Positions 1,352 to 17,467 are shown, numbered from the stretch's first letter. The stretch: DNA of 17,467 nt from a virus (IMGVR_UViG_2585427741_000008); one strand, 5' to 3'. Notes: generated by a model not told the origin, from the sequence alone. Numbers and translations are program-made.

Positions 1352-1353
1352 AC

Positions 1354-1554: not shown

Positions 1555-1603
1555 GATTCTTCACCCGTCAGAACAGGGGGCGCGGTTCCACGCCCCTGAG
1601 TGA

Positions 1604-2809
1604 TTACGCCGCTGCAATCTTCAGCAGTTTGATGGCCTGCGAATCGACCAGCATCCCGCCGGTGCGCTTGGTGGTATAAAAACCGACAAACGGTTTATTG
1701 GTGTACGGGTCACGCAGAATGCGGGTGCCGATACGGTCAACGATGGTGTAACCCCGTTTGAAGTTACCAAATGCAATGGCTTTCGCATCAGCGGCGATAT
1801 CCGGCATCTGTTCGTTTTCAGCGATACCGTAACCCGCCAGAGAGGACGGCTGCCCCAGTTCCAGCCCCGGACGCCACAGATAGTTACCCTCGGTGTCTTT
1901 CAGCAGACGGATGGCAAACAGGCTGTTGTTGTTCATCATGAACTTCGCGCCAGTGCGGTGTGCCTTACGCAGCGTGTAAATCAGTTTGATAATGGCGTCT
2001 GCGGTCACCGCGGTCGCTTCGCCGGATACAATATGCTGAAGTTTGCCGAACGCCCGGACCTTGTCGGTTTCATCAGTGGATTCATACGCCAGGAACCCTT
2101 TCGGCTTCTTGGTGCCATCGCCTGAGGTAAAGGCAATTTCTTCCTGTTCGGCAAATTCGGTTGCCAGCTCGCTGTTGATCCAGGCCTCCACGTTGAAGAA
2201 GGCATCGTCCAGCATTTTCTGGGTAGCCTGCGGGTTGCCGTAGATTTCCCCCATGAGAGGTTCAATCAGCTCCAGTCTGGAGGTGGCAGTCTGGGATCGC
2301 GTATCCGTTTCCCCCACCCATCCGGAAGCCGTGCCGCCCAGATTCACCAGTTTTTTGTAGTCGGAACCGCCAACGGTGATCACCGTGGCTTCCTGACGCA
2401 TCACCACTTCATCTTTCAGCAGGTTAAGAATGTTGCGATCCAGTTCTTCCGGCACGGCGTAGCCACCGTCTTCATCGGTACCCACCTGCAATGCCTTACG
2501 CTCCAGATCGCGCAGACCGTCTTCACGGCCTTTACGCAGGAAGCCCACAAACGCCTCTTTATGCTCGGTGGCCAGTTTATTTTGCGCTCCACCAGCCGGA
2601 CGTTTCAGCTCAAGCAGCTCTTTTTCAAGGTCGCTTTTGAGATTTTCCAGCTCGCTGAGTTTCCCGTTCAGGGTTTCCACCTGCCCGGCAAGTTTGCCTT
2701 TTTCCTGCTCAATCGCATCCACGCGCTTGTCGTTCTTTGCCTTGAAGTCGTCAAACTTCTGCTGCAGCTCCTGCGCGACCTGTTCCACATCTTTAATATC
2801 AACCGCCAT
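1604..2809 (-). CDS. Major capsid protein, HK97 family
   Basis: 401-aa ORF with an N-terminal coiled-coil delta domain (KLAGQVETLNGKLSELENLKSDLEKELLELK) followed by a capsid body. Directly downstream of the prohead protease, in canonical order. Confidence 0.9.
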   Translation of the reverse strand: MAVDIKDVEQVAQELQQKFDDFKAKNDKRVDAIEQEKGKLAGQVETLNGKLSELENLKSDLEKELLELKRPAGGAQNKLATEHKEAFVGFLRKGREDGLRDLERKALQVGTDEDGGYAVPEELDRNILNLLKDEVVMRQEATVITVGGSDYKKLVNLGGTASGWVGETDTRSQTATSRLELIEPLMGEIYGNPQATQKMLDDAFFNVEAWINSELATEFAEQEEIAFTSGDGTKKPKGFLAYESTDETDKVRAFGKLQHIVSGEATAVTADAIIKLIYTLRKAHRTGAKFMMNNNSLFAIRLLKDTEGNYLWRPGLELGQPSSLAGYGIAENEQMPDIAADAKAIAFGNFKRGYTIVDRIGTRILRDPYTNKPFVGFYTTKRTGGMLVDSQAIKLLKIAAA

Positions 2810-2823
2810 CGTATTTCTCCTGA

Positions 2824-3510
2824 TTAGAAGTTCAGATTTTTCAGTGCATTCAGTGCAAAGCCCACATCCTCAGCGTCGCGCAGGGACAGTGCGCCATAGC
2901 CCCCGGCCATGAATGCTTTGGCCTGGGTACGGGAGAGTCCGACATCACGCAGGACTCTTTCGATTTTTTTCTGTTCGGGGATTTCCCCGCGGGCCAGCGC
3001 GTTCTTGACGTCGCTGATCCGCGCCTCGTCGTTAGACGGAAACGTCACCAGACTGACTTCCCAGAGGTCGATTTCTTTCAACAGAAAGGCTTCTTTGCTC
3101 CGGTCGTATTCCCAGTCTTTCAGGACGTACCCAATAGAAAGGCCGGTTAACGAACCGGCCTTCATGTGTGCATGTGCGCGTTTTGCGAGGGGATCATCAT
3201 CAATAAGCAACCGTCCCCTGACGTAAAGTCCGACATCGTCTTCCTTCATTTCAGTGTAAACACCGATGGGTTCATCCATGCGGTGCTGCCAGAGCAGCGC
3301 AGGTAACGCTTTTCTGTCACTCCACGCCCGCAGGGAAGCAGCAAATGCCCCGGACATCACCACATCATCGTGGCTGTCCTTTACACCAAAGACGGAGCCA
3401 TACCCTTCAAACTCACCGGAGTCACTGACAGATTTCAGACTCAGCGGTACATCAAGACGTTGTTTCGTCTGCATTGGCGTTATCCTTCTGCTTACCGGCT
3501 TTACTGCCAT
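2824..3510 (-). CDS. Prohead maturation protease, HK97 family (peptidase S78-like)
   Basis: 228-aa ORF between portal and capsid. N-terminal region FEGYGSVFGVKDSHDDVVMSGAF is typical of HK97-type prohead proteases. The 5' end overlaps the portal ORF, so the true start may be the internal Met (MQTKQ...). Confidence 0.8.
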   Translation of the reverse strand: MAVKPVSRRITPMQTKQRLDVPLSLKSVSDSGEFEGYGSVFGVKDSHDDVVMSGAFAASLRAWSDRKALPALLWQHRMDEPIGVYTEMKEDDVGLYVRGRLLIDDDPLAKRAHAHMKAGSLTGLSIGYVLKDWEYDRSKEAFLLKEIDLWEVSLVTFPSNDEARISDVKNALARGEIPEQKKIERVLRDVGLSRTQAKAFMAGGYGALSLRDAEDVGFALNALKNLNF

Positions 3511-4693
3511 CGGAGGGTTTCGTGGTCATGTTCATCGGTGTGAGATAGACATCCCCACCGGGACGCGGATTCATATCTTCCAGGTCGCGGCAGTCATTGG
3601 GAGAGTAAATTCCCCAGTTAATCCCGGTGGCGTAGGCTTCAAAACGGGACTTCATATCCCCGCGCAGTAACGCCCCGGCGTTAAATTTGGCGTAATAAAC
3701 GCCCTGCTTACTTTTTCGTACCAGTCCGGTGTTGATCCGCTGCTCAATGCGGGTCAGATACGGCACCAGTGAATAGTTGATAAATCCCAGCCCCAGTTCT
3801 TCGATATTGTTGAAGGTGGCACGATCGGTGTTCTGCACCATGTGCAATGGCACACGGAACAGACGACAGATTTCTTCAAGCTGAAACTTGCGGGTTTCCA
3901 GGAACTGGCTGTCCTCGGCGTTCAGCGCCATCGACTTCCAGTCCAGCCCCATCTCAAGGATCATCGGGCGGTGAGCATTGCCAAGCCCGGTGTGACGCTC
4001 CTCAAAATCTTTCTTCAGGCGCTCATAAGCCTGATCTGACAGCGTCTGCTCTGTACGCAACACACCCGACGTCACCGCGCCATTGCTGAACAGTCTGGCC
4101 CCGTGCTCTTCGGTCGCAGCTGCCAGCGATATTGCCTCGCGGGCATAGGCGATGGGATTCAGCCCCACCAGTCCGTCCAGCGTCAGCGTACGCACATGCC
4201 AGATATCCTCCTGGCTCAGTACATCCGTGGAGCCATCCGGGAATGTGACCTGATAGATCGGCTCCCAGCTACTGTTAAGCTTCGGTACCACACAGCCGGG
4301 ATCGACGGGCAGCAGTTCAGCCACTTCGCCAAATGCTTTCACTTTGTAGGCGTAAAAGTTTCCCCGCAGGCACAGACAGGTGACCACCAGCTCCCAGAAC
4401 TCCTGCGGCGTCATATAGCCATTGGGATGCGTGGAGATCAGCTTATGCAGACGTTCGCCAGTGGCTCTCTGCTTCAGGCTGCCGTTCAGGTGATACAGGT
4501 TGCAGGGCAACATCCCGACCGACTCCGCCAGCACCCTGACGCAGGAAAAAACCGCCGTCAGTCGCATGGCCCTCTGGCTGCTGATCTGCTTTCCGGTATA
4601 GGTGTCGTATGACAGCCCGATAGCATCCGCCAGCTCTGCTGGCGTGGTCACCGGTGCGTCACTTTTTCGTTGAAATAATCCCGAAAAGAACAC
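3452..4693 (-). CDS. Portal protein, HK97 family
   Basis: 413-aa ORF immediately downstream of the terminase large subunit and a small membrane ORF. Size and position fit a portal protein. Confidence 0.85.
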   Translation of the reverse strand: MFFSGLFQRKSDAPVTTPAELADAIGLSYDTYTGKQISSQRAMRLTAVFSCVRVLAESVGMLPCNLYHLNGSLKQRATGERLHKLISTHPNGYMTPQEFWELVVTCLCLRGNFYAYKVKAFGEVAELLPVDPGCVVPKLNSSWEPIYQVTFPDGSTDVLSQEDIWHVRTLTLDGLVGLNPIAYAREAISLAAATEEHGARLFSNGAVTSGVLRTEQTLSDQAYERLKKDFEERHTGLGNAHRPMILEMGLDWKSMALNAEDSQFLETRKFQLEEICRLFRVPLHMVQNTDRATFNNIEELGLGFINYSLVPYLTRIEQRINTGLVRKSKQGVYYAKFNAGALLRGDMKSRFEAYATGINWGIYSPNDCRDLEDMNPRPGGDVYLTPMNMTTKPSDGSKAGKQKDNANADETTS

Positions 4694-4875
4694 TATTTAC
4701 CTCCACCAACAGACATCTGTGTACGGTCGAGATATCGCGCCACCAGCCACGACCAGAACAGGCACAACGCCCCGGCAACAACAAACCCCGCAGGGGGATA
4801 AATCAGCCAGGCACCATACGCCAGCAAAAGCACCCCCAGCACGCCCACCAGAGGCGCGAGAATCAGCATGATCAT
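4693..4875 (-). CDS. Small hydrophobic (membrane) protein, unknown function
   Basis: 60-aa ORF, almost entirely hydrophobic ([26 protein letters not shown]...), wedged between terL and portal with start/stop coupling to both. Confidence 0.4.
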
Positions 4876-4886
4876 AATTACCTCAG

Positions 4887-6620
4887 TTAAAGCGAGCGGA
4901 TCCCGTAGGACTCAATGTGATCAGACAGCGTGTCTTCTTTCTCGTACAGCATGGCTCTGCCAACCGCCATAATCAGCGCAACTGCACCGTCAATTTTGTT
5001 TTCCGCCTGCTCTTTGACGGGTTTCACCACATCATCGTTACCCGGCATGTTTTTGCCGACCACGTTGCCGATACACCAGGTCATGATGGGATTGCCGTCA
5101 TGATGAAAGCGTCCCGATTCAATCGCTGCTTCCAGCTCTTTCATCGGATCGGACATATTGGTGAAGTTCTGGAAGATAGTGACGGGATTCAGGTCTTCAT
5201 CAGCAAGGTCATGTGACAGCCCGGTCGCCCCGAAGGGGTCGATGGGTGACTCGCTGACCGGGCTGATTTTGTTCGCCGCTTTGGCCTCTTCGAGGATGTA
5301 GCGATAATCCACCTCTGCACCATCGGTAACGGTCAGGACGCCCATTTCCACCCATTTCTGAAAGCGTTCGGCTGTCCGGCGATCTTCATTTTTCTCGACG
5401 CTGTACACCGTGTCATACGGTACCCAGAAACGCGGGGCCACACTGTAGTAATGCGTTTTACCTTCAATCTCGCGGGTATAAAGTCGCGCCATGCTGTTCA
5501 TATCCAGTTTACGCGCCAGGTCAAAGGCCAGAATGCACGGCTGCCCCTCGAATTGCTCAAGAGTCAGTGATTTATCCTCGCAGCTCTGCCAGCTCACCAG
5601 GTTGAAATACGCCGAACGCGCCGACACCCAGATATTGAGGTGTTTTGTTTTAAAGACGTTTGCCAGACGGGCGTTATTTTTCGCACGCTGTTGCTGACTT
5701 AACAAAAACTCACGGTAAACCGACACCCCGATATTCGGGTTGGCTTTTTCCAGCACCTGTGGGTTGGTCCAGTCGTCACCTTCGTCAACGGTATAGATGA
5801 TCCCGAACAGTTCATCGTTGGGTACCGAACCGTTGAGCATCTCGATAACTTCCCGCCGTTTGTCGTAGCACGGCCCCTCAATGTTGTACCCGGCGGTAGT
5901 GATAGCCCACATCAGTGGCTGACGTCGCGCCCCCATCCCGGTAAGCATCGTGGTGTAAAGCGCATCTGTGGCGTGCTCGTGATATTCATCCACCACCGCA
6001 CAGTGGGGTGATGAACCATCACCGGGGTTACCGATCAGCGGTTCAAAACGCGCACCATCCTCCGGACGGTTCATGTTTGAGGCGTTAACCTCAATCCCGA
6101 ACGCTTCCGTCAGCATGGGTGTGCGTTTACACATCAGTCTTGCCGGACGAAAGACTTCCCATGCCTGTTTCTCCGTCGTGGCACCGGAATACACTTCCGC
6201 GCCGAACTCGTTATCACAGGCAAAACAATACAGGGCGACACCGGCAGAGATTGCCGATTTGCCGTTCTTACGGGGGATTTCGGTATACACCTCACGGAAG
6301 CGGCGCAGCCGGGAGCCTTTATTGACCCAGCCAAATGCGCAGCAGATCACAAAGAGCTGCCACGGCTCCAGCGTGATGGGCATCCGTTTAAATGCCCACT
6401 CACCCTTGGTGTGCGGCAACAGCTGAATAAATTTGGCGGCCCGTTCAGCCAGATCCTTGTCGAAGCGGTAACGAAACGACTTACTTTTTTCCGCCATCAG
6501 GTCATCAAGATGGCGCTGGCAGGCCTGAATCACAAACTGGCAGGCCACAATCTTTCCGCGCACGACATCCCGGGCATACTGATTGGCAGCATTTACGTTG
6601 GGGTAAGATTTCCGGCTCAT
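4887..6620 (-). CDS. Terminase large subunit
   Basis: 577-aa ORF with Walker A-like PRKNGKS and Walker B-like CAVVDEYHE. Follows the small terminase subunit. Confidence 0.9.
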
Positions 6621-6633
6621 GATTCGATGATTT

Positions 6634-7128
6634 TCAGATTGTCAGAAACGGGTTAGTGGCTTTCTTCTTCCCCGCCAGGCCAATCAGACGCTGGCGGCTG
6701 CTGGGGTCGAGTCCGAGCATTGCCCCCGTGCTGCTCATCTCGGACTCCTGTTCTTTTTTGGCGGTCAGCTCCGGATTTTTGACCATGCCACCCATTGCAC
6801 CGGTGATGGTGTTACCCTGTCTGGCAATATTTTTCACGGCACGTCGCCAGAACTCATAGGCCACACACCACCGCTCAAGTACCGCCAGGTCAGTCACGCA
6901 CAGCAGGCCCTGACCGCAGAGTTCTTTGGTTGTCAGTTGCCACATGATCGTGGCGAGAGGGAGATCTTCTTCAGCGAACCACTCCGGTGGCTCAACACCT
7001 TTGATGGGCGTAAAAACAGGTTCATCTTTATTCAGGGCTCGCTTGCCGGGGTTTCCGGCCAGCGCCTTGCGCGCCGTTGGCTTGGGGCGACGCCCGGAAC
7101 GCCCCGCCGTTCCAGCCATATGCGGCAC
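6634..7128 (-). CDS. Terminase small subunit (P27-family-like)
   Basis: 164-aa ORF with a basic N-terminus ([29 protein letters not shown]) typical of P27-family small terminases. Immediately upstream of terL. Confidence 0.8.
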
Positions 7129-7243
7129 TCCAGGTTAAATTTCATTTTTCGCGGGTATAAAAAAACGATGGGGCGGGCAGTCCTGAAGGCGTCAGGTCAC
7201 AGGGATTTGGCCCGCCCTCCCCTCTGGCAGTGGGAACTGGTTC
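7129..7243. other. Candidate cos / packaging-recognition region (HNH-terS intergenic), also carrying a minus-strand terminator-like structure
   Basis: GC-rich inverted repeat GGGCGGGC (7171-7178) / GCCCGCCC (7210-7217) enclosing a nested hairpin CCTGA-AGGCG-TCAGG (7182-7196). On the minus transcript a U-run follows (complement of the A-run at 7160-7166). Location between HNH and terS is where HK97-type phages carry cos. Confidence 0.35.
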
Positions 7244-7615
7244 TTACTTCAGCCGTTCACGGGCCGTCTTCGCCTTATGACACGGCCAGCACAGGCTCTG
7301 CAGATTGCTGTCGACATCAGTGCCGCCATGCGATTTAGGGATGATGTGGTCAACGGTCTTCGCCTCACGCACCACACCAGCACGCAGACATAACTGACAC
7401 AGGCCTTTGTCACGCTTCAGGACACGCGCGCGGATACTGTCCCACTTGGTATCGTAGCCACGCTGGTGGCGGGATTGTCCTGGTTTGTACTGACGCCAGC
7501 CTTCGCCTTTGTGTTGCTCGCAGTAGCCTGACGGGTCAGTGGTTGTCGATCGGCAGCCGCGAACACGGCAGGCTTTAGGTGTTCGTGGTGGCATAAATAT
7601 ATCCTTAGTATTCAA
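7244..7615 (-). CDS. HNH endonuclease (terminase-associated)
   Basis: 123-aa ORF with the HNH motif CQLCLRAGVVREAKTVDHIIPKSHGGTDVDSNLQSLCWPCHKAK. Adjacent to terS and the putative cos. Confidence 0.85.
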   Translation of the reverse strand: MNTKDIFMPPRTPKACRVRGCRSTTTDPSGYCEQHKGEGWRQYKPGQSRHQRGYDTKWDSIRARVLKRDKGLCQLCLRAGVVREAKTVDHIIPKSHGGTDVDSNLQSLCWPCHKAKTARERLK

Positions 7616-7709
7616 ATCACAACAACAGGTTTCCTATGGTGATGAGCGCCAGGGGTCTGTACAATTACTCTAATCACCCCCGTCAATAACGTTACAATTA
7701 GGAGGTTCA

Positions 7710-8567
7710 GTGTTAAATCCTATCAGCTTATTTTCAGTAAAATTAACCTGCTACCACAATGATAGAGAAATTATGGTAGGAACAGGTTTTCTTTATAGCC
7801 ATGAAGATTATAGAGACCCAATCTTAATAACAAACTACCATGTCCTAACCTGTAGAGAACCCAAAAACCCAGCATCCTTAATGAACAATATAGGATCCTC
7901 ACCAAATAAAATAAAATGTCACATTTGGGCTCCGAATGGCTCGTCCTGCCATACATTTTATATCAATATTGATGAACACACGGAATGGTTAGAACATCCC
8001 TTAAGGGCTAATGGGGTGGATATTGTTGGCATTCCCATAATCTTTACTAGCGATGTAGGCTATACAACACAAAACGATATTAACAACACCGACACAATTC
8101 CACTTCACGTTGCATCAGACTTATCAATCGTGGGTTATCCCCTTGGTTTATCTGTAAATGAGCATTTACCAATTTGGAAAAATGGAGTGATTGCCAGTGA
8201 ACCAGACGTTAAAATATCCGGCCTTGACTATTTCTATATTGATGCAACAACCAAGGAAGGCATGTCTGGATCTCCTGTATTTTCTCATGAATATACTACT
8301 CAAATTATAGTTTCACCAGAAGTGCATGCTTTATATCAGCGTCGCCAGCGAGGCGAACTAGATGCTTTGCAATTTATCTCTTCAATACCATCTGAGTCAC
8401 TAAACAACACCATTCAAGTAAAAAAATTCAAATTAATTGGTATTTATTCTGGACGAGTGACAGTAGGAACATCTATGCCAGATATAGGTATAGTTTGGAA
8501 GCTTAGTCTAATTGAGGAAATGCTTTCGTCCAAAAATTTGGTCAAATCAGAATATCCACCTTACTAA
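7710..8567 (+). CDS. Trypsin-like (S1/Trypsin_2-type) serine protease with an ~85-aa C-terminal extension of unknown function; AT-rich cargo gene
   Basis: 285-aa ORF with a GTG start at 7710 preceded by AGGAGG (7700-7705). Putative triad His44 (GTGFLYS...ILITNYHVL, codon 7839-7841), Asp104 (NGVDIVGI) and Ser186 (GMSGSPVF, codon 8265-8267). About 33% GC in a sampled 60-nt stretch versus about 47% in a sampled flank. Opposite strand to all flanking phage genes. Confidence 0.7.
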   Translation: MLNPISLFSVKLTCYHNDREIMVGTGFLYSHEDYRDPILITNYHVLTCREPKNPASLMNNIGSSPNKIKCHIWAPNGSSCHTFYINIDEHTEWLEHPLRANGVDIVGIPIIFTSDVGYTTQNDINNTDTIPLHVASDLSIVGYPLGLSVNEHLPIWKNGVIASEPDVKISGLDYFYIDATTKEGMSGSPVFSHEYTTQIIVSPEVHALYQRRQRGELDALQFISSIPSESLNNTIQVKKFKLIGIYSGRVTVGTSMPDIGIVWKLSLIEEMLSSKNLVKSEYPPY

Positions 8568-8624
8568 TCACTTTTCATAAGGGAGATATTGCACCTAATT
8601 GACAGTTTTCCGTTCTGGTTAGGA

Positions 8625-8870
8625 TCACTGTTGATTAATCTCCCTTAAATCAACTTTATCCCGATTACACTGCCCCAACGCTGATAACAGACTGACGTTC
8701 AAATCCAGGCTACCACCATAGGTCAACGGATCAGGAATCACTGGTTGCGGGGTTTCAGCGGTCAGATTCGCCGGTAATGGTACCGCCGGAACTTGCACGT
8801 AAACTGTCCGCGTACTTCCGCAACCGCTCAGCAGCGGCAGCAGGCACAAGGCGTGCAGCACAATCATCAT
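8625..8870 (-). CDS. Rz1: Rz1-like o-spanin (outer-membrane lipoprotein)
   Basis: Internal start MMIVLHALCLLPLLSGCGS gives a lipoprotein signal peptide with lipobox LLSGC, then a proline-rich mature part. Overlaps the 3' part of Rz in a different frame. The ORF track extends the frame upstream to 8936. Confidence 0.6.
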   Translation of the reverse strand: MMIVLHALCLLPLLSGCGSTRTVYVQVPAVPLPANLTAETPQPVIPDPLTYGGSLDLNVSLLSALGQCNRDKVDLREINQQ

Positions 8871-9135
8871 CCGCAACAGCCACTTTGATATCTTTCTGGA
8901 TTCTCTGTGACTCCTGTGCGATCTGCTGTTTTGCATGCTGGTTAACCTCTATAACTGTATTGACGATTTGCAGTGATTGCAGGACGTTACGGGTAATGGC
9001 TGTTGCAGATTCAGCATTTTGTACAGCCTCATCAGCACGTTTCTTTTCGTGCTGATATTTGCTGTAGTAGTGGTTGGCCGACCAGATGAAAGAACCGATG
9101 ACAGCAGCGATAACCAGCTTATAGCTCAACTTCAT
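8755..9135 (-). CDS. Rz: Rz-like i-spanin
   Basis: 126-aa ORF with an N-terminal transmembrane segment (KLVIAAVIGSFIWSANHYY) and a coiled-coil-like, Q/A-rich periplasmic region. Immediately downstream of the endolysin. Confidence 0.75.
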   Translation of the reverse strand: MKLSYKLVIAAVIGSFIWSANHYYSKYQHEKKRADEAVQNAESATAITRNVLQSLQIVNTVIEVNQHAKQQIAQESQRIQKDIKVAVADDDCAARLVPAAAAERLRKYADSLRASSGGTITGESDR

Positions 9136-9595
9136 TTACCACCCCACCAGCCTCTTTAAATCGGGCAATCAGGTCGCCGATTTTATGTTCATACTGACCG
9201 TAACCTGCACCTGGTAACGACGCCCAGATATTGCTGCAACGGTCGATTGCCTGACGAATATTGCCGCGGTCAATCATCGGTAAAGCGCCACGCTCTTTAA
9301 TCTGCTGCAGAGCTACAGCGTCCTGGCTTTCTGGAGAAAAATCTTTCAGGCCAAGCTGTTTACGGTAAGCATCCCACCAGCGTGAAAGAAGCTGGTAACG
9401 TCCGGCGGCTGTTGATTTGAGTTTGGGGTTTAGCGTGACAAGTTTGCGAGGGTGATCGGAGTAATCAGTGAACAGTTCGCCACCAACAATAACATCATAA
9501 CCGTGGTTACGTGTCGGTTGTTGCCCGTTATCCGTTCCTTCTGACCATGCCACCATATCAAGGAAAGCTTTACGCTGGGAATTTAGTGCCTGCAT
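9119..9595 (-). CDS. R: Endolysin, lambda R-type lytic transglycosylase
   Basis: 158 aa; the sequence (…QRKAFLDMVAWSEGTDNGQQPTRNHGYDVIVGGELFTDYSDHPRKLVTLNPKLKSTAAGRYQLLSRWWDAYRKQLGLKDF…) matches lambda R as I recall it along nearly the whole length, including the catalytic-Glu context WSEGT. Confidence 0.9.
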   Translation of the reverse strand: MQALNSQRKAFLDMVAWSEGTDNGQQPTRNHGYDVIVGGELFTDYSDHPRKLVTLNPKLKSTAAGRYQLLSRWWDAYRKQLGLKDFSPESQDAVALQQIKERGALPMIDRGNIRQAIDRCSNIWASLPGAGYGQYEHKIGDLIARFKEAGGVVNEVEL

Positions 9596-9598
9596 AAA

Positions 9599-9925
9599 TT
9601 ACTCCTTCGAGCTACCAAATTTGTTACCGATTACTCGCATTGCAGCCCCACGAATAGCATCGACACCGATCAGCCCAACGCCGCCACCAATGGCAACAGA
9701 AAGCGATTTAGGCCATCCGACATACTCAAGAGCGGATGCAAAAGTCAGCGTCAGAGCACCACAGAGCAAAATCTCGAGCGTTTTTCGTTTCCAGCCACCA
9801 CCACTGCCAAAATAGGCAATACGTAAACCAGCCATAACGATCGACATAATCACTGCGCCCAGCGGTGTGTCTCCACGCCACCAGCTCTGGACCAACTCCA
9901 GCCAAGTATTTGGGTTATGAGGCAT
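9599..9925 (-). CDS. Holin (three predicted transmembrane segments, class I-like)
   Basis: 108-aa ORF ending 3 nt before the endolysin start. Three hydrophobic stretches (LGAVIMSIVMAGLRIAYF; LEILLCGALTLTFASALEYVGW; LSVAIGGGVGLIGVDAI) and a charged C-terminus. Not recognisably lambda S. Confidence 0.65.
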   Translation of the reverse strand: MPHNPNTWLELVQSWWRGDTPLGAVIMSIVMAGLRIAYFGSGGGWKRKTLEILLCGALTLTFASALEYVGWPKSLSVAIGGGVGLIGVDAIRGAAMRVIGNKFGSSKE

Positions 9926-10077: not shown

Positions 10078-10099
10078 AAACCCGCTCGACGGCGGGTTT
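10078..10099 (-). terminator. Intrinsic-terminator-like hairpin in the late leader upstream of the holin (tR-prime-like candidate)
   Basis: 8-bp stem AAACCCGC / GCGGGTTT with a 6-nt loop. On the minus transcript it is followed by UUUUGUCGUUUCU (complement of 10064-10077). Located about 150 nt upstream of the holin start. Confidence 0.4.
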
Positions 10100-10144
10100 A
10101 AGCTGTGTGGCGAAGTAACCACTCTTAACAGATTACAATGTTTT

Positions 10145-10173
10145 TTGCGTACGCGTTAGCATTTTCGTAAAAT
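10145..10173 (+). promoter_or_regulatory. Candidate sigma70 promoter for the ATPase-methyltransferase module
   Basis: TTGCGT (10145-10150), a 17-nt spacer, then TAAAAT (10168-10173), about 31 nt upstream of the ATG at 10205. No strong Shine-Dalgarno is visible before 10205. Confidence 0.35.
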
Positions 10174-10204
10174 ACATTACCTTGCAACCATTTCAGTATA
10201 AAAA

Positions 10205-11995
10205 ATGAGCACAGAATTAAAACTAAAGAAAATTATGGCATCGTCTAAAATTGAGCCATTTATTAGACATATTCGTTTTCCTTTTTTTAAAAACCTTGCA
10301 GAGGGTAGCAAGATTGATTTTGAGTATCCAATTACAGCATTAGTTGGTCAAAACGGAACCAATAAAAGTTCTGTTTTAAGAGCCCTATTCGGTTCTCCAA
10401 ACAACTATTCTCTGGGTAGCTTATGGTTTTCTACAGATGTAGATGAGATTAAAGATGGTGGTCGTTCTAGATTTATTTATGGATATTATGACAAAGCTAC
10501 TGATTCAATTGTTGAAGTAATTAAAACTCGAATCTCTAAAGAAAATGATCCTGATTACTGGGAACCATCCAGACCATTAAAATCCGACAACATGGCTCCA
10601 ATGCCTAGTACAAAAATCTCAACCAATCAACTAAGGACTAGGTGGAAAGCTATTGACAAAAATGTAATATATTTAGATTTCAGAGCAACTATCAGTGCAT
10701 TTGATAAGTTCTTTTATCACTCTGATTTTCATACATACCCTAAGAAAGATTATCTTAGAAAACGCAGTCAGATGCTAAAAGACATTATAGATAACGATCT
10801 TAAAAAATATCAACCTCATAAAGGAAAAAAAGACAAGCTATTTGTTAACACTTTATTAGAAAAAAGTAAGGTAGAGGCAATCAGCAAGATTTTAGGTCGC
10901 AAATACACAAGCATCCGCCTTATTGAACATAGCTTATTCACTAATGACAAAGCTCCCACAATTATTCTTCAATCAGAAAACTTAAAATATTCTGAAGCTT
11001 TCGCAGGCAGTGGGGAATTTGCTGTATCTATATTAGTGCATAAACTAATGGATAGCCCTGATGCATCTTTAATTCTGCTAGATGAACCTGAAGTATCACT
11101 TCACCCTTCTGCTCAATGTCAATTGATGGAATTTTTATCAGAACAAGCACTTAAAAAGAAACATCAAATTGTCATATCCACACATTCATCAACAATAGTA
11201 AAAGACTTGCCTAAAAATGCCATAAAATTATTCTGTCTGAATGATAAAATAGGAAAGGTTGATGTTCTTCAAAATGTCAGCCCAGAAGAATCTTTCTTTA
11301 TTCTTGGTGAACGCATTGATAAAAGAACCGTTATTGTAGAAGATCGGTTAGCGAAGAGGTTTGTAGAAAAGGCGCTTAAAGCGGGTGGTGAAGCATTATT
11401 AAACTCCTTCGAAGTAAAACATGTTCCTGGAGGAGCGGGAAGTATTCTTCAAACTTTGGCTGTGCCTTTATGTGTTGCCAATGTTAAAAACGTTATTTTC
11501 TTATTAGATGGTGACCAATCGAGAACTGATGATTATCCAACTTCTGATTCCATACCAGAAAATCAAAACACAAACCTTCAAAACATCATAAAAGAAATAA
11601 CCAATCAAGATATAAAATTTAGTTGTGATGGTTCTAATGGCTCATCAAATAACAATCAAAAATACAAAATGCAAAGAAATTTTATCGATTTCATCCACGA
11701 TAAAATTGCTTTTCTTCCTGTTTATACTCCTGAAGCATTTCTTATTGAGAATGTTCATGGTGATTATAAAGAATATAAAGATCAAATCCCCAAAAACATT
11801 CAAGATGCTAAAGAAATCACCAAAGAACTTTGTAAGTTAGACACAGGGTTGGAAAACGTTACCAGTGACGATATCTTTGAAACACAAATCAGAATTCTTA
11901 ATAAAATACCAAATAATCATGAAGTGTTAACAAAAACTCGAGAGTTGCTGCAAATCTTTTTAGATAATGATACTATCAGACCAAGAGTGAGGTAG
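10205..11995 (+). CDS. ABC-type (AAA_15/AAA_21-like) ATPase with C-terminal TOPRIM-like putative nuclease domain (OLD/PARIS-like architecture)
   Basis: 596-aa ORF. P-loop-like ITALVGQNGTNKSSVL (aa 43-58, nt 10346-10369), Walker B/D-loop ASLILLDEPEVSLHPSAQ (D293 E294, nt 11081-11086), and in the C-terminal half an acidic pair VIVEDR (E379) plus a DxD motif FLLDGDQ (D435-G-D437, nt 11507-11515), as expected for a TOPRIM fold. AT-rich; stop is 3 nt before the methyltransferase start. Confidence 0.6.
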   Translation: MSTELKLKKIMASSKIEPFIRHIRFPFFKNLAEGSKIDFEYPITALVGQNGTNKSSVLRALFGSPNNYSLGSLWFSTDVDEIKDGGRSRFIYGYYDKATDSIVEVIKTRISKENDPDYWEPSRPLKSDNMAPMPSTKISTNQLRTRWKAIDKNVIYLDFRATISAFDKFFYHSDFHTYPKKDYLRKRSQMLKDIIDNDLKKYQPHKGKKDKLFVNTLLEKSKVEAISKILGRKYTSIRLIEHSLFTNDKAPTIILQSENLKYSEAFAGSGEFAVSILVHKLMDSPDASLILLDEPEVSLHPSAQCQLMEFLSEQALKKKHQIVISTHSSTIVKDLPKNAIKLFCLNDKIGKVDVLQNVSPEESFFILGERIDKRTVIVEDRLAKRFVEKALKAGGEALLNSFEVKHVPGGAGSILQTLAVPLCVANVKNVIFLLDGDQSRTDDYPTSDSIPENQNTNLQNIIKEITNQDIKFSCDGSNGSSNNNQKYKMQRNFIDFIHDKIAFLPVYTPEAFLIENVHGDYKEYKDQIPKNIQDAKEITKELCKLDTGLENVTSDDIFETQIRILNKIPNNHEVLTKTRELLQIFLDNDTIRPRVR

Positions 11996-11998
11996 ATA

Positions 11999-13039
11999 AT
12001 GGCTAAAAAGATACACGTTTACGATTTCTTTTCCGGCTGCGGCGGAACCAGTGTAGGCCTAAAAGCGGTGGGAATGGAAATTATTTTCGGTTTAGATATT
12101 GATCTAGACTCCGCTAACACCTTTAAAATGAATAATCCATTTGCACATTTTATCAATGGTGATATCAAAGATACACACGTTGAGGAAATTAAGCATCTGG
12201 TTTGTGCGTCAACACAAAGCAAAGCTCTAACCCTATTTTGTGGTTGTGCTCCATGTCAACCATTCTCGAAACAAAATAAAATACGGAACGAGGATGATCC
12301 GAGAAAAGATCTGCTTACTGAGTTTGCACGGTTTGTCTCTTATTATACGCCAGACTTTGTACTGGTAGAGAATGTACCAGGAATCCAAAATGTCGATATT
12401 AACAATGGAAATTTCCAGAAATTTCTTGAGGTTTTAGCACATCATAACTACAACGTTGATTTTGGTGTGATTCCTGCGTTGTGGTTCGGGGTTCCTCAAA
12501 CACGTGAACGTTTTGTTTTACTGGCGTCAAAACACACGAATATTAAGCTTCCATCACAAACTCATGATGGATTAAAAACTCCGTATGCAACTGTCAGAGA
12601 CTGGATCGGCGGATTACCTCCTATTGCTGCCGGTGAAACTCATAAAGATGTTATGGATCATACAGCAGCCAAACTATCTGATCTAAATATTAAACGTATT
12701 AAAGCGACTCCTGAAGGAAAAGGTAGAGAATCTTGGCCTGAAGAACTTATACTAAAATGCCATAAAAAATATAAAGGGCATACTGATGTTTATGGACGGC
12801 TTTCTTGGGACAAACCAGCAAGTGGATTAACAACTAGATGTATAAGCTATTCGAATGGACGTTTCGGACATCCAGAGCAAGATAGGGCTATTTCTGTTAG
12901 AGAGGCTGCGTTATTACAGACTTTCCCATTAGACTATTCCTTCACAGGCTCTTTAGTCTCGAAAGCCAAACAGATAGGGAATGCAGTCCCTCCCAAGATG
13001 GCTGAAGCTCTTGGAAGGGCTATCATCGCATCACTTTAA
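11999..13039 (+). CDS. DNA (cytosine-5)-methyltransferase
   Basis: 346-aa ORF with the canonical m5C-MTase motif order: I FSGCGG (nt 12029-12046), IV GCAPCQPFS (PCQ at 12251-12259), VI LVENVPGI (ENV at 12367-12375), VIII QTRERFVL (12497-12511) and X IGNAVPP near the C-terminus, with a variable region between VIII and X. Confidence 0.9.
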   Translation: MAKKIHVYDFFSGCGGTSVGLKAVGMEIIFGLDIDLDSANTFKMNNPFAHFINGDIKDTHVEEIKHLVCASTQSKALTLFCGCAPCQPFSKQNKIRNEDDPRKDLLTEFARFVSYYTPDFVLVENVPGIQNVDINNGNFQKFLEVLAHHNYNVDFGVIPALWFGVPQTRERFVLLASKHTNIKLPSQTHDGLKTPYATVRDWIGGLPPIAAGETHKDVMDHTAAKLSDLNIKRIKATPEGKGRESWPEELILKCHKKYKGHTDVYGRLSWDKPASGLTTRCISYSNGRFGHPEQDRAISVREAALLQTFPLDYSFTGSLVSKAKQIGNAVPPKMAEALGRAIIASL

Positions 13040-13041
13040 AA

Positions 13042-13063
13042 GCGGAGCCCTAGAGGGCTTCGC
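13042..13063. terminator. Hairpin at the convergent junction of the methyltransferase and Q genes
   Basis: 9-bp stem GCGGAGCCC / GGGCTTCGC (one G-U wobble) with loop TAGA. It overlaps the Q stop codon. The minus transcript has UUUUAAAG after the stem; the plus strand has no U-tract. Confidence 0.4.
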
Positions 13064-13406
13064 CTAACAATAATAGAATACCTGATATAAACCCTATAGC
13101 TCCCTGAAGCTCTTTTCTAATTGCTCCATCAGAGCATTTTCTTTTCTTAGCAATGGTGCGTAATGAGATACCAATCACAAAATGAGCAATGATCAGCTCA
13201 TATTCTTCTGGTTTATACTTCCGCAGGCGGGCGACACAGCCATCAATCATGATGCCTTCATCATCATCGCACTGAATCCGGGACTTTCTGCCATGAGGTA
13301 AAAGCCCCTTGAAGCCAGCGGCTACCGGTTGCCAATCCACACCACTGTTCTCTGCCGCAGCCCACGCTCCCCAACGGTCTAATACTTCATACATATCACA
13401 CATCAA
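13050..13406 (-). CDS. Phage antitermination protein Q (small Q family, not lambda Q)
   Basis: 118-aa ORF. Pattern LDRWGAWAA...W...AAGFKGL...RIQCDDDEGIMIDGCVARL...SDG...L resembles the small enterobacterial Q-antiterminator family as I recall it. Sits last in the early/regulatory block, before the late genes. Confidence 0.65.
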   Translation of the reverse strand: MMCDMYEVLDRWGAWAAAENSGVDWQPVAAGFKGLLPHGRKSRIQCDDDEGIMIDGCVARLRKYKPEEYELIIAHFVIGISLRTIAKKRKCSDGAIRKELQGAIGFISGILLLLGEAL

Positions 13407-13420
13407 CTTTCTCCACCAAA

Positions 13421-14416
13421 TCAGGCTAGCACACCAATTGCCAACGCACGGTCGATAAAACGAAATATCAGCTCCAGCTGGGAGCCATACTTCTCTTCAA
13501 ATGCCACGGTATCCGCATGCAGCTCGTCGTGATGCTTTCTGCACAAAGGCAACACAAAGAGGTCATGCGCTTTTGTACCCATTCCCCCCTGACCGTGGCC
13601 TATCAGGTGGTGGGGATCATCAGCAGGCTTTCCACAACATGCACACGGCTGTGTCTTAACCCAGCGCGTGTACTTTTCATTAACCCAGCGGCGACGTTTT
13701 GGGCGTAACATAAAAGACTCCGGCGACTCAGGATCCACTTTCAGCGCCAGTACCTTTTTCGCCTTATCCTGGATGATGCTGGTGGCAGGAACCGAAGGCA
13801 CAAGGTCACTTTCCCGGGTAACAGACGGCACAACAGGCTTCGGTAATCTCAGTGCCTTACGGGCTGCACTTTCCGGTAAGGCATCCGCCAGATCATTACG
13901 AATCAGCCACCAGCACAGTTCCGGCATTGTCACAACGTGACTGTCATCAAAACCGAGATCCCGACGCACGACAGATAACACCCACCGGACACAGTTATCC
14001 GTTGCCATTGATTCCAGCCGTTCCGTGAACTGATCGCGCAGCTGGTTATCGCAGTGCCAGCACAGACGGATTGCGCCCGGCGCGTGTCGCATTGTGGTCA
14101 TGTTCTCGCTGTGCCAGTCGGAATGAGGCCACTGGCAGCCTTTTTCACGAAGTAACCAGCTTTCAAGACATTCCACGCCACCAGCACGACGGATCACTGC
14201 CTCATTGCGGAACACGGCCCGAACGGCAGGATCATCCGCCAGCGGTTGTGATGCCGCCGGAACGGCACCACTGGCGAAAGATGAATAACGTTCCGGCTCA
14301 GGCTCCAGCAGGACACGCCCCTGCATAAACAGGGGCATCAGCTCTGAACCTGGTCTGAACAATACGATCCCCATACGCGGGGCAATTTCAGGGGTCAGTA
14401 GTGCTCTCACGGTCAC
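13421..14416 (-). CDS. DUF968-like phage protein with C-terminal HNH/zinc-binding-like motif
   Basis: 331-aa ORF. C-terminus CACCGKPADDPHHLIGHGQGGMGTKAHDLFVLPLCRKHHDELH has Cys/His spacing resembling the HNH-like domain of YdfU-type lambdoid proteins. Position between KilA-N and Q is typical. Confidence 0.6.
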   Translation of the reverse strand: MTVRALLTPEIAPRMGIVLFRPGSELMPLFMQGRVLLEPEPERYSSFASGAVPAASQPLADDPAVRAVFRNEAVIRRAGGVECLESWLLREKGCQWPHSDWHSENMTTMRHAPGAIRLCWHCDNQLRDQFTERLESMATDNCVRWVLSVVRRDLGFDDSHVVTMPELCWWLIRNDLADALPESAARKALRLPKPVVPSVTRESDLVPSVPATSIIQDKAKKVLALKVDPESPESFMLRPKRRRWVNEKYTRWVKTQPCACCGKPADDPHHLIGHGQGGMGTKAHDLFVLPLCRKHHDELHADTVAFEEKYGSQLELIFRFIDRALAIGVLA

Positions 14417-14417
14417 C

Positions 14418-15215
14418 TCAATGTACGGTATCGAGCAGCTTTAACAGCTCAGGGAATCGGGATTCGAAGAAATGCGGCTGCGTCTCGCGCGGATTTGCGG
14501 GACTGGTGATGTTCTTGCCGAACATGCAGCCTTTCGCTGTCAGTGACCAGAATTTTTTGATGTTGTTAATCGCGGTACGGCTGTATCGTTCGCGCTGCTC
14601 GACGATCCCCAGCTTCACCATCTGGTGATATGCCTGATTAGCTGTCAGGCGGATACCATACTGCTTCAGCAATGCACTCAGTGACAGCGTGGGGCGGCTT
14701 GAGCCATCAGGCGCGTCAGCAGGAGCATCAATGGCATAGCGCGGTGCCAGATTCGGTAAGCCAACAGCCTCCTGGAGTTTCTGACAGGCCCCAAGCACTG
14801 AAGAGTTAGACAGGTTTAACTCCCTGCGCATAAAGTCCAGCAGAATCACTCCAGCCTGCATCTTGTCAGCAGCCTGCCCGGATAATTTTTCCGGTGCGCT
14901 GGTTACCATGTCGAAAGTACGGATCACCTTAAGATGGAATGACGGGCTGATCCACATTGCATAGGCATACACCAGTTCTTTGCAGACATACGTCCCCTGG
15001 TTATTTCCGCCACGAATAACGTTAACTGGCTCTATATTGACCGAGTTGCAAATCTGCAACTCGCTTATTAAACGTTCAGTTTGCTCATTGCGGAGCCAGA
15101 ATGCAGGCTTATGCTTATCCAGAGAACCGGCAGCCCTGTGCAGATCGTTCAGGCTGTAACGCCCAAAAGCATCACGACGAACTTCAATACCATCAATGAC
15201 CATCAGATTATTCAT
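14418..15215 (-). CDS. KilA-N domain protein (antirepressor-like)
   Basis: 265-aa ORF whose N-terminus (MNNLMVIDGIEVRRDAFGRYSLNDLHRAAG...GTYVCKELVYAYAMWISPSFHLKVI) matches the KilA-N DNA-binding domain pattern. Confidence 0.7.
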   Translation of the reverse strand: MNNLMVIDGIEVRRDAFGRYSLNDLHRAAGSLDKHKPAFWLRNEQTERLISELQICNSVNIEPVNVIRGGNNQGTYVCKELVYAYAMWISPSFHLKVIRTFDMVTSAPEKLSGQAADKMQAGVILLDFMRRELNLSNSSVLGACQKLQEAVGLPNLAPRYAIDAPADAPDGSSRPTLSLSALLKQYGIRLTANQAYHQMVKLGIVEQRERYSRTAINNIKKFWSLTAKGCMFGKNITSPANPRETQPHFFESRFPELLKLLDTVH

Positions 15216-15234
15216 ACTTCGTTTCTCCTCTTAA

Positions 15235-15624
15235 TCAGGCGGCTGCACCCGCCGTTTTCTCGTACTTACTGATAGTGATCTCGACCTTCCCTTCCGGGAT
15301 AACCGGTCCCCACTCCACCAGCATTCTTTTCACCTGACTGTCGTCTTCCCACACACCCGCGTGGGTCAGGGCGTCAAACAGCGCCTTGTTATAGTTGTCC
15401 AGATCGCGGATCCGGTTATCCGGAGGAAACAACACGATCTCCACTGAAGCAGGTGCCGACGTTGGTTTTGGCAGACGACGTAACTGCTCAACTATTGCTG
15501 CACACGCCGCGCTCTGAAATTTTCGCCCCGCCGCGCTTATCAGGCTCTTACCAGCAAATGCCCCTTTGTTGGGGTGTCGCCAGTACGTGTTCACGCTGGG
15601 CGGGAAAGGAAGGATCAACTTCAT
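15235..15624 (-). CDS. rusA: Holliday junction resolvase RusA
   Basis: 129-aa ORF with RusA hallmarks: LPFPPSVNTYW N-terminus, RDLDNYNKALFDALTHAGVWEDDSQV catalytic region, and C-terminal EITISKYE. Confidence 0.85.
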   Translation of the reverse strand: MKLILPFPPSVNTYWRHPNKGAFAGKSLISAAGRKFQSAACAAIVEQLRRLPKPTSAPASVEIVLFPPDNRIRDLDNYNKALFDALTHAGVWEDDSQVKRMLVEWGPVIPEGKVEITISKYEKTAGAAA

Positions 15625-15980
15625 ACTTTCAGGCCCCTCTCATGTAACCAGTGGGCTGCACGCAGCCTGGCGTTTTCCTCACCGGCAAGCAGTGAGCGGA
15701 TAATCCCGACCGCCTCGCTGTCGTCGTCCTTCACCGCGGTATGAAGCGTTATCCCCCGGGCCACGCCACGCTTTATCGTGATGACGCCTTTTTTCTCCAG
15801 TGCGCGAAGATGCTCCACCGCTGCATTCACCGAACGATATCCCAGCATGGTTGCCACCTCCTGATTGGTTGGCGGGAAGCCACGTTCTTTCTGGTAAGAA
15901 ATCAGCATATCCAGCACCTGCTGCTGGCATTGAGTTAACGTCGTCATTACGCCCCCACGTAATTCCCTGACAGATACCAC
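15621..15980 (-). CDS. Winged-helix DNA-binding protein (LexA N-terminal-domain-like)
   Basis: 119-aa ORF. LTQCQQQVLDMLISYQKERGFPPTNQEVATMLGYRSVNAAVEHLRALEKKGVI resembles the LexA-type winged HTH. Start overlaps the RusA gene stop by 4 nt. Confidence 0.5.
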   Translation of the reverse strand: MVSVRELRGGVMTTLTQCQQQVLDMLISYQKERGFPPTNQEVATMLGYRSVNAAVEHLRALEKKGVITIKRGVARGITLHTAVKDDDSEAVGIIRSLLAGEENARLRAAHWLHERGLKV

Positions 15981-16441
15981 TCATCACTCGATACAGCGCG
16001 CTTGCTGCTTTTCCGTAAACACTGCTCACGACGCGCCAGAAAATTGTTTCGTTCTGGCTGGGAATGGCTTTCACGGAATGCCGCCATCCACACCGTTGCA
16101 GCACGACGGTATAAGCCCCTGGACTCCAGTTCTTCAGCCTGGCGGGTCAGGCACAAAATCTCCCGCGGGTCGTTAGTGCCGACATAGAAATTGCGCACAG
16201 GTCTGGTTTCACGAACTGGTTGCGGTTCCGCCTCCTGCGCTCTCTCAGTCAGGCGCGGGAAATGTCTGCGTGTATCCCCTTCACAACGGTGAGCCACACG
16301 ACCACTCTGACGTAACTTGCTTGCTGACTGCAGAACGCGCTGCCGTGAGTAACCAGCAAAAGCATCCGCAATGTCTCCGGAAGTACACCCCGGATGGGCT
16401 TCAATGTATTTCTGAACTTCATTCAAAAGACTCATGATCAC
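15947..16441 (-). CDS. Hypothetical phage regulatory protein (possible PerC-like C-terminal region)
   Basis: 164-aa ORF with an N-terminal HTH-like segment and a C-terminal LESRGLYRRAATVWMAAF resembling the PerC-family signature. Weak call from memory. Confidence 0.4.
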   Translation of the reverse strand: MIMSLLNEVQKYIEAHPGCTSGDIADAFAGYSRQRVLQSASKLRQSGRVAHRCEGDTRRHFPRLTERAQEAEPQPVRETRPVRNFYVGTNDPREILCLTRQAEELESRGLYRRAATVWMAAFRESHSQPERNNFLARREQCLRKSSKRAVSSDEWYLSGNYVGA

Positions 16442-17379
16442 CCCCTGAATCCTGCCGGGATCTGGCTGTAGTCCACGTTGTCGTAACTGGCTTTGAAGTA
16501 CGGGTCTTCGCGTTTTTCGGTGTACGTGCTGACGGACGGCGATAAGCGCAGGGAAAGCTCATCCCATTTTTCCCGCAGCTTCGACGGGCTGAGCACGTTA
16601 CGGCACCAGAACGGATCGCGGCTGACGCGGCTGTACATCTCGCAGATTTGTTTGTGAGTACGACCATCCTGCACACACATCAGGCGAATTTCGTTTGCCC
16701 AGGCTGTCCAGTTCGGTTCTTTGGGACGAACCACCTCGCCGTCACATTCGGCAGCCTGCTCGTACAGGGCGATGATTTTTTTCCAGAACCACTGTGCGCA
16801 GGTCAAATCATCCTGCGTTCCCCACTGGCGCTTTTTAGGGCTGAATACAACCGCATCAGGATGGCGAGTTAAAAAATCCTGTTCATCCGTCTGCGTGTCC
16901 GGTTGCGAAGCGTCCGGACGAGAAGGTTTTTTATCTGACGGATCATGTTTTGATTTTACTGACGGATCCCCGCCAGATTCTGACGGGTGAAAACCCGCTT
17001 TTTTGCCAGATTTCGACGCATCAAATTTTGACGGGTCAGATTTTGATGCGTCAGATTTTGACGGGTCAGAATCTGACAGTTGAGAAAATGCCGCTGCCTG
17101 AAGCTTCGCAACGTTAAGCTGATAAACATTCGACGCATTGCGGTTACCCTGGCGACGCGCCTTACGCGTTAACCAGCCTTCTGCTTCCAGCCGTGCGATA
17201 GCCGTTCTGACGGTGCTCATCCCCGCGCCAATCTGGCGGGCAATGGTTTCAATTGATGGCCAGCACACACCTTCGTCATTACTGAAATCAGCCAGGCGGG
17301 CCATAATTGCCACGCTGGATAACTTCATGCCTGACGCAGCGCAACCATCCCATACATAGCCGGTTAATTTAGTGCTCAT
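16438..17379 (-). CDS. Replication initiation protein (O-like: N-terminal wHTH, repeat-encoded linker, C-terminal domain)
   Basis: 313-aa ORF with AGAGGT 6 nt upstream of the ATG. N-terminal HTH (LSSVAIMARLADFSNDEGVCWPSIETIARQIGAGMSTVRTAIARLEAEGWL), a low-complexity SDPSK/SDASK pentapeptide-repeat linker, and a C-terminal domain. Lies at the head of the early region upstream of RusA. Confidence 0.55.
   Translation of the reverse strand: MSTKLTGYVWDGCAASGMKLSSVAIMARLADFSNDEGVCWPSIETIARQIGAGMSTVRTAIARLEAEGWLTRKARRQGNRNASNVYQLNVAKLQAAAFSQLSDSDPSKSDASKSDPSKFDASKSGKKAGFHPSESGGDPSVKSKHDPSDKKPSRPDASQPDTQTDEQDFLTRHPDAVVFSPKKRQWGTQDDLTCAQWFWKKIIALYEQAAECDGEVVRPKEPNWTAWANEIRLMCVQDGRTHKQICEMYSRVSRDPFWCRNVLSPSKLREKWDELSLRLSPSVSTYTEKREDPYFKASYDNVDYSQIPAGFRG
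17007..17081. repeat. Five tandem 15-bp direct repeats (iteron-like), with degenerate copies upstream to about 16934
   Basis: Read directly: CAGATTTCGACGCAT, CAAATTTTGACGGGT, CAGATTTTGATGCGT, CAGATTTTGACGGGT, CAGAATCTGACAGTT (17007-17081). Related CTGACGGATC/CTGACGGGTG copies at about 16934-16990. They lie inside the replication gene and encode the pentapeptide repeats. Confidence 0.7.
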
Positions 17380-17385
17380 GACCGA

Positions 17386-17467
17386 CCTCTATTTCCCTGA
17401 ATTTACGACGAAACTGTTCGAGCGGGCTGAAGCACTCATGCTCATAGCCTTCGCGGAGGTAGATAAC
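17386..17467 (-). CDS. C-terminal end of an upstream early-region ORF (unknown function), partial
   Basis: Open minus-strand frame from the window edge to a TAG at 17386-17388 (…LSTSAKAMSMSASARSNSFVVNSGK*). Too short to assign. Confidence 0.25.

Follow-up and report, generated by a model that had tools for sequence, protein, structure and literature searches.

The locus examined in this work raises the question of whether two adjoining genes, one encoding an ATPase and the other a cytosine methyltransferase, form a single functional unit or are neighbours by accident. The pair lies within IMGVR_UViG_2585427741_000008, a stretch of viral DNA of 17,467 nt hereafter referred to as the window, which is a portion of an Escherichia coli prophage of the e14/HK97-like type (region 100% identical to strain C4, NZ_CP010121) and carries the two genes in the slot between the late-gene activator gene Q and the holin gene. 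All coordinates refer to the whole window, and L-numbers denote the loci compared. A first-pass annotation had described two plus-strand genes 3 nt apart between Q and the lysis cassette, AT-rich and opposed in orientation to the surrounding phage genes, as a candidate restriction-like or defence system. The open reading frames (ORFs) were recovered exactly as described, the large flanking ORFs (holin, Q, lysozyme, terminase, portal and capsid) all lie on the minus strand, and the GC fraction is 0.30–0.41 over 10250–13000 against 0.52–0.60 in the head and replication genes. The two genes were found to be inherited and to diverge together across phyla and, judged from their sequences, seem on balance to form one methylation-gated, ATP-dependent restriction-like unit that would be expressed in lysogeny as prophage cargo.

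Relatives of gene 1 were collected by a peptide-pattern scan using one genome per species, which gave 80 loci with full-length relatives at 34–53% identity, spanning Proteobacteria, Acidobacteria, Actinobacteria, Firmicutes, Bacteroidetes, Nitrospirota, Patescibacteria and others, and neighbouring methylases were located by tblastn with gene 2 within 5 kb of each relative. A C5 methyltransferase gene was present within this distance in 78 of the 80 loci and was co-oriented and no more than 400 bp away in 55 (38 downstream, 17 upstream), a linkage and co-inheritance of a nuclease-type gene with a complete methyltransferase as in restriction-modification (R-M) systems. One of the two exceptions, L060, is a contig of only 1.9 kb. 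As a genome has only a few C5 methylases, chance adjacency would be expected in well below 1% of cases. The intergenic gaps of 49 other pairs were mostly −4 to +47 nt, and across these pairs and the window the pairwise identities of the ATPases tracked those of the methyltransferases (Pearson 0.72, Spearman 0.69, Mantel 0/999 permutations). Reciprocally, the methylase homologues P0136 and P0194, from Klebsiella and Burkholderia, adjoin ATPases of 594–609 amino acids (aa) that belong to the same family. Co-occurrence of the pair in other genomes, which the first-pass annotation had left to be checked, is therefore far beyond chance and accompanied by co-divergence.

The arrangement of each locus was established by clustering of all neighbouring ORFs together with Pfam scans. 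The order was ATPase–methyltransferase or methyltransferase–ATPase in approximately 70% of loci, and in approximately 70%, including the entire clade to which the window belongs, the gene 1 relative was the only nuclease candidate adjoining the methylase. The ATPases cluster by architecture, with the window clade purely of the two-gene type. In the clustering of neighbours across the 80 loci, no gene for a helicase, a reverse transcriptase or a separate TOPRIM protein recurred near the ATPase.

The translation of gene 1 contains the motifs previously noted, namely a P-loop GQNGTNKSS (K54), the Walker B/D-loop segment LILLDEPEVSLHP (D293/E294), E379 and D435-G-D437, all of which are invariant in 29 homologues. 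Across 82 sequences (80 species-level loci, many phyla) the invariant residues comprise K54, D293-E294, H327, E379-D380, D435-G-D437, E510 and K536. Pfam assigned residues 20–332 to an ABC-type ATPase (AAA_15, AAA_21, SMC_N) and gave no domain match in the C-terminal half. The best PADLOC match was the HEC-04 profile (1.9e-36, 123.7 bits, residues 209–470 against profile positions 155–386 of 494), and the retron type I-B ATPase-Toprim effector profile was matched by residues 42–484 (1e-24), both matches including E379 and D435-G-D437, while the AriA (1e-14 to 1e-16), PtuA, GajA and Old profiles matched the ATPase part only. Matches to MADS, Druantia and DISARM profiles were set aside as generic domain similarity rather than membership of those systems, and a DpnI_C methyl-DNA reader at residues 550–591 was rejected as not significant (Pfam E 0.05, below the cut-off). 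A sequence profile of the C-terminal half found nothing significant among PDB sequences, so that the TOPRIM assignment is based on structure models, motifs and PADLOC profiles. The full-length structure model best matched TsOLD (6p74) and GajA, and its C-terminal domain matched BpOLD (6nk8), TsOLD and AriB, in agreement with the TOPRIM/OLD-like fold proposed earlier; the model also has an alpha/beta insert at residues ~175–260 that might correspond to the dimerisation domain which OLD nucleases carry inserted in the ATPase. The protein thus combines an ABC-type ATPase at the N terminus, which has Walker A, signature, Walker B and H-loop, with a TOPRIM domain at the C terminus that bears the conserved Glu and DxD metal-binding motif. 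Given the invariance of the residues listed above, the architecture of an OLD-type ABC ATPase-TOPRIM fusion is regarded as established and nuclease activity as predicted. The N-terminal lobe, which falls outside the HEC-04 profile, contains the invariant residues W74-F75-S76-T77, D117/W119/E120/R123, R146-W147 and D158-F159-R160, and this family-specific lobe could, speculatively, serve as a sensor or partner-binding surface.

Gene 2 contains the diagnostic C5 methyltransferase motifs I, IV, VI, VIII and X (FSGCGG, PCQPFS, ENVPG, QTRER and GNAVPP), all as first described, and matches PF00145 over its full length (1e-59), TIGR00675 (1.5e-42) and PADLOC MTase_II (4e-91); by these motifs and profiles it is a complete C5 cytosine methyltransferase. 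The nearest solved structures by sequence were catalytic domains of DNMT1 (1e-34, two stretches), ahead of M.HaeIII and M.HhaI. In 23 loci of the window clade the target recognition domain (TRD, residues 185–290) is 54–71% identical, against 44–54% in the N-terminal catalytic core. Conservation of the TRD above the catalytic core is unusual for C5 methyltransferases and suggests a dedicated lineage that may share one specificity. The label M.HgiDII carried by a homologue 68% identical to gene 2 is an automated name that gives no target for gene 2, and GTCGAC occurs once in the 17.5-kb window, which is uninformative as to the target. The recognition sites of the partners found in related loci (the enzyme of the ‘M.HgiDII’ label, HpaII and the SmaI-type restriction endonucleases) all contain CpG.

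The closest characterised relatives of gene 1 are HEC-04 and IbfA, stand-alone ABC ATPase-TOPRIM defence proteins of ~494–518 aa encoded by single genes with no methylase partner reported; HEC-04 induction is toxic, and its phage defence is lost when Walker A or E/DxD is mutated (bioRxiv 10.1101/2024.01.29.577857; PMC12111858). Residues E379, D435 and D437 of gene 1 align with E319, D375 and D377 of HEC-04 at a constant offset of +60. HEC-04 was the best, partial, match for each of nine members of the family (the window protein and eight others, taken from diverse loci), with scores of ~100–140 bits that usually cover profile positions ~150–400 of 494, a pattern similar in seven of the eight other members. 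The best-matching stretch excludes the N-terminal lobe of gene 1 and, in most members, the C-terminal helical domain as well, and the C5 methyltransferase linked in 78/80 loci contrasts with the single-gene function of HEC-04 and IbfA. From these comparisons the gene 1 family is a sister of HEC-04/IbfA rather than the same family, distinguished by its N-terminal lobe and an obligate methylase. What is undescribed is therefore the pairing alone, since the ATPase by itself has a described and validated sister family. A profile of the C-terminal half retrieved only 585 representative clusters of 1.84 billion, essentially all of them ~600-aa members of the gene 1 family, which is thus discrete and rare.

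Context sets the classes within the OLD family: class 1 nucleases stand alone, those of class 2 have a UvrD-like helicase as neighbour, those of class 3 belong to a retron, and class 4 is divided into AriA and AriB (PMC10568477). Gene 1 shares the N-terminal ABC ATPase and C-terminal TOPRIM domain of P2 Old/TsOLD, GajA of Gabija, the OLD protein of retron I-B Eco8 and AriA/AriB of PARIS, although sequence similarity to OLD nucleases is very low outside the Walker B region. None of the four classes has a methyltransferase partner and the context of gene 1 fits none of them; in PARIS, moreover, AriA (ABC ATPase) and AriB (TOPRIM) are separate proteins, whereas gene 1 encodes one fused polypeptide. 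No named system or OLD class with this pairing was present in PADLOC-DB 2.0 or the literature searched, in line with the first-pass annotation, which had not recognised it, although the pairing may have been noted before.

The pair resembles Type I, Type III and ATP-dependent Type II (CglI/NgoAVII) R-M systems in being a methyltransferase and NTPase-nuclease operon that is co-inherited, mobile and patchily distributed, and R-M systems more generally in that the C5 methylase is often accompanied by Vsr. Known NTP-dependent restriction nucleases use helicase-type or AAA+ motors. Here, in contrast, the motor would be an ABC ATPase and the nuclease a TOPRIM domain, with restriction itself predicted. 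Known restriction nucleases have PD-(D/E)XK, HNH, GIY-YIG, PLD or half-pipe folds (Orlowski & Bujnicki 2008, PMC2441816).

As a methylation-gated unit, the pair would operate as follows. The methyltransferase would place 5-methylcytosine (m5C) at a short, fixed motif in the DNA of host and prophage, the ATPase-TOPRIM protein would engage DNA through ATP binding or hydrolysis, and the TOPRIM nuclease would fire on DNA without the mark, for example that of a superinfecting phage or a plasmid. The nuclease itself might read the motif and cut the invading DNA, which would be classical restriction, or the methyltransferase might serve as a specificity subunit of the kind found in Type I and Type III systems. 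Alternatively the TOPRIM target might be tRNA, as in PARIS and, according to a 2026 preprint abstract, in P2 Old, in which case the outcome would be abortive infection triggered by unmethylated DNA. More tentatively, the pair may represent an unrecognised R-M type that combines an OLD-family ABC ATPase-TOPRIM restriction subunit with a DNMT1-like methylase of fixed specificity, and would then constitute a fifth OLD class and provide the missing nuclease of the HgiDII/NmeAI/EcoUT4938-type operons. If the pair works in this way, an ABC ATPase-driven TOPRIM nuclease would join the short list of restriction enzyme designs, and a methylation-coupled class would be added to the OLD family, whose activation signals (Gabija, PARIS, retron Eco8, P2 Old) are a live question. 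Methylation would be a defined on/off signal that is experimentally controllable, and the activation of OLD-type ATPases could therefore become directly testable.

The connection to those operons stems from loci in which a GHKL gene lies between methylase and ATPase (~14/80), an arrangement recalling the GHKL/paraMORC C5-methylase operons of the REBASE ‘R.HgiDII’, ‘R.NmeAIP’ and ‘R.EcoUTORF4938P’ types; the window module, unlike these, has no GHKL gene. Such GHKL proteins were read as R-M components by Iyer et al. 2008 (PMC2292703) and could be assigned no nuclease fold by Orlowski & Bujnicki (PMC2441816); the parts of these papers that were read make no mention of an ATPase-TOPRIM neighbour. 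It is plausible that this neighbour is the missing nuclease of the GHKL operons, and the gene 1 family could in this way explain a REBASE oddity, that of GHKL ‘restriction enzymes’ without a nuclease fold.

Several observations weigh against a methylation-gated restriction unit. An intact ATPase gene with no C5 methyltransferase within 5 kb occurs in L042, the sole real exception to the linkage. The order methyltransferase–R.HpaII–ATPase was found in seven loci (L029, L031, L033, L036, L045, L062 and L083), and a SmaI-type restriction endonuclease lies near the ATPase in L080; because of these loci the ATPase is not always the sole nuclease and need not be ‘the’ restriction enzyme. The order methyltransferase–GHKL (HATPase_c_3 and Hypoth_Ymh)–ATPase or variants of it accounts for ~6 loci, and methyltransferase–GHKL-histidine kinase–receiver–ATPase for 8, which together (~14 loci) point to more complex regulation. 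HEC-04 and IbfA act alone, in an abortive-infection-like manner and with no methylase, and the TOPRIM effectors of PARIS and P2 Old are tRNases (the latter according to the abstract of a 2026 preprint).

The main rival, although it is considered unlikely, is a PARIS-like guard or backup, in which the ATPase-TOPRIM protein would be blind to methylation, would monitor the methyltransferase or the R-M system for anti-restriction proteins or methylase loss, and would trigger abortive infection by acting on DNA or tRNA. The appending of the ATPase to complete type II systems in 8 loci (the seven with HpaII and the SmaI type of L080) is what a guard would predict, the sister HEC-04/IbfA proteins act alone, and the matches of gene 1 to profiles and structures include AriA and AriB. 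OLD-type ABC-TOPRIM modules within BREX and R-M loci are moreover described as a backup layer of effectors, and the anti-restriction protein Ocr is what PARIS senses (PMC12839542). However, there is no restriction enzyme to guard in ~70% of loci, the entire window clade among them, and because a lone methylase gives no defence a guard would there be left without anything to support. Direct functional dependence also agrees better than opportunistic embedding with how tightly the two proteins co-diverge and with the conservation of the TRD in a dedicated methylase clade.

A selfish addiction module, in which the pair would stabilise the prophage or island in the manner of a toxin-antitoxin system, with self-cleavage upon methylase loss and little anti-phage benefit, is improbable as the principal explanation. 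In its favour, the pair shows the linkage and decay pattern of R-M systems, the module is carried on mobile elements, and HEC-04 is toxic when induced. Addiction is not exclusive of methylation-gated restriction, as classical R-M systems do both, and the presence of other defence cargo in the Q-holin slot of related prophages suggests selection for defence. Far less probable is an accessory role in the repair of C5 methylation damage, with the ATPase-TOPRIM protein processing T:G mismatches or other products of m5C deamination in a Vsr/MutL-like way. C5 methylases are classically linked to Vsr and some loci encode GHKL (MutL-like) proteins, but a bona fide Vsr gene (PF03852, 2e-35) is additionally present in 18 loci and the role is therefore already filled there; the characterised relatives are all defence nucleases, and the distribution is patchy and mobile. 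The accidental placing of an orphan phage methyltransferase beside an unrelated ATPase, for which it may be said that orphan methylases are common in phages and that this prophage has a separate N6-adenine methylase, is rejected as scarcely credible because of the linkage across phyla in 78/80 loci, the conserved order and spacing, the co-divergence (Mantel 0/999) and the reciprocal check.

The pair is rare in E. coli, being present in 18/5426 complete genomes, yet spread over many phyla. Eight of the 18 carry the window allele and ten a second allele, with an identity of ~60% for the ATPase and 67% for the methylase; in all 18 the module occupies the Q-holin slot with both genes intact. In a Klebsiella quasipneumoniae prophage (L091, 4001–5781) the ATPase gene is split (381 + 164 aa) and the adjoining methylase is intact (350 aa); an R-M system would be expected to decay in this direction, which speaks for the restriction-like reading, though in a single case. 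The exact ATPase sequence occurs on 275 contigs and a near-identical methylase on 477. The module appears mobile and patchy, with Q-holin slots in E. coli and Klebsiella prophages, an integrase neighbour in Burkholderia and low GC. No homologue was found among 50,697 deposited phage genome records, and no true family member on plasmids (tblastn E ≤ 1e-6; no place covers 80% of the query), with no IncI1 or ibfA-type record among the 25 matches listed. An empty Q-holin site joining both flanks was absent from the 5426 E. coli genomes, and the exact Q allele of the window was found only with the module (8 E. coli genomes).

In e14/HK97-like prophages of E. coli and Klebsiella, the interval between Q and the holin serves as a hotspot for defence genes and other cargo. 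Among the contents observed in this slot, downstream of Q, in related prophages (L090, 1523–4384; L084, 2217–2911; L003, 6470–7876) are a C5 methylase with DUF262 and a MAE_28990 HEPN nuclease in E. coli AR437, an additional DNA methyltransferase in E. coli PM4, and HicAB beside the ATPase-methylase pair in Klebsiella.

The coordinates of the module and of its bordering features are collected in the table.

Features of the ATPase-methyltransferase module and its borders (window coordinates unless given as residues)
Feature	Position	Strand	Description
Holin	9599–9925	−	PF05106
Left hairpin and T-run	10078–10099	−	8-bp stem, dG −13.3, z −2.5; scored as minus-strand terminator
Intergenic region 5' of gene 1	10100–10204		phage late-region sequence, conserved, as far as 10174
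Gene 1	10205–11995	+	596 aa, ATG start
Gene 1 domains	residues ~1–355 (ATPase), ~356–510 (TOPRIM), ~510–596 (C-terminal helical region)	+	OLD-type layout
Stop-3 nt-start junction of genes 1 and 2	11993–12001	+	from ORF coordinates
Gene 2	11999–13039	+	346 aa, ATG start
Right hairpin	13042–13063		GC-rich 9-bp stem; overlaps 3' end of Q
Q	13050–13406	−	PF06530

The 3-nt junction implies co-transcription of the two genes and, probably, translational coupling. The first-pass annotation had credited the module with its own promoter and with bracketing hairpins, and both claims held in part. A weak candidate plus-strand promoter, TTGCGT-17-TAAAAT at 10146–10174, can be picked out by eye, but a consensus scan gave no sigma-70-like plus-strand site upstream of 10205. 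Both hairpins exist; however, the segment 10000–10174 is 87–95% identical to lambdoid phages that do not carry the module, and the left hairpin is therefore a feature of the phage late region that borders the module rather than part of it. The right hairpin lies where the methyltransferase gene (stop 13039) and Q (stop 13050) converge, has a dG of −17.1 kcal/mol (z −4.2) on the plus strand and of −14.8 (z −2.6) on the minus strand, and is likely to be a bidirectional transcription barrier; the terminator scan made no canonical terminator call there. Given that the two stops are only 10 nt apart, there is no room beside Q for a Q-dependent late promoter, which presumably lies ~2.9 kb away within 10100–10204, next to the terminator-like hairpin. 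If so, the module separates Q from its site of action.

Some of the variant loci have features of their own. The GHKL and Ymh protein matches PADLOC ‘REase_II’ profiles. In the Bacteroidetes locus L070 (311–4959) a 1000-aa GHKL and HEF_HK histidine kinase and a Response_reg_2 receiver lie between the methylase and the ATPase-TOPRIM gene, and a similar kinase/receiver arrangement occurs in L041, L046, L054, L061, L077, L079 and L069. In these loci a two-component module thus lies within an R-M-like operon; no PADLOC model was matched by the GHKL-histidine kinase or by the receiver protein.

The remainder of the prophage is mosaic. On the minus strand, genes for replication and regulation are followed by Q, the lysis genes, HNH, terminase, portal, protease and major capsid genes and those of a contractile tail. 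The backbone (L001; window 1–9600 and 13400–17467) includes e14-like regulatory genes (ymfK/L/T-like), DUF968, KilA-N, RusA, a Dam-like N6-adenine methylase, HK97-type head genes and a Mu-like sheathed tail, with an HNH gene adjoining a P27-type small terminase gene. Rfam and tRNA scans of the window gave no match. Between the lysis genes and the HNH/terminase genes lies a further plus-strand ORF (7710–8567, 285 aa) that is also AT-rich (GC ~0.38), where the RefSeq annotation has only a 95-aa hypothetical protein in a different frame. Its product contains a Trypsin_2 peptidase domain (3.8e-09) and matches the PADLOC candidate PDC-S45 (5e-21) as well as retron reverse transcriptase-protease effectors, and this ORF is probably a second defence-type moron.

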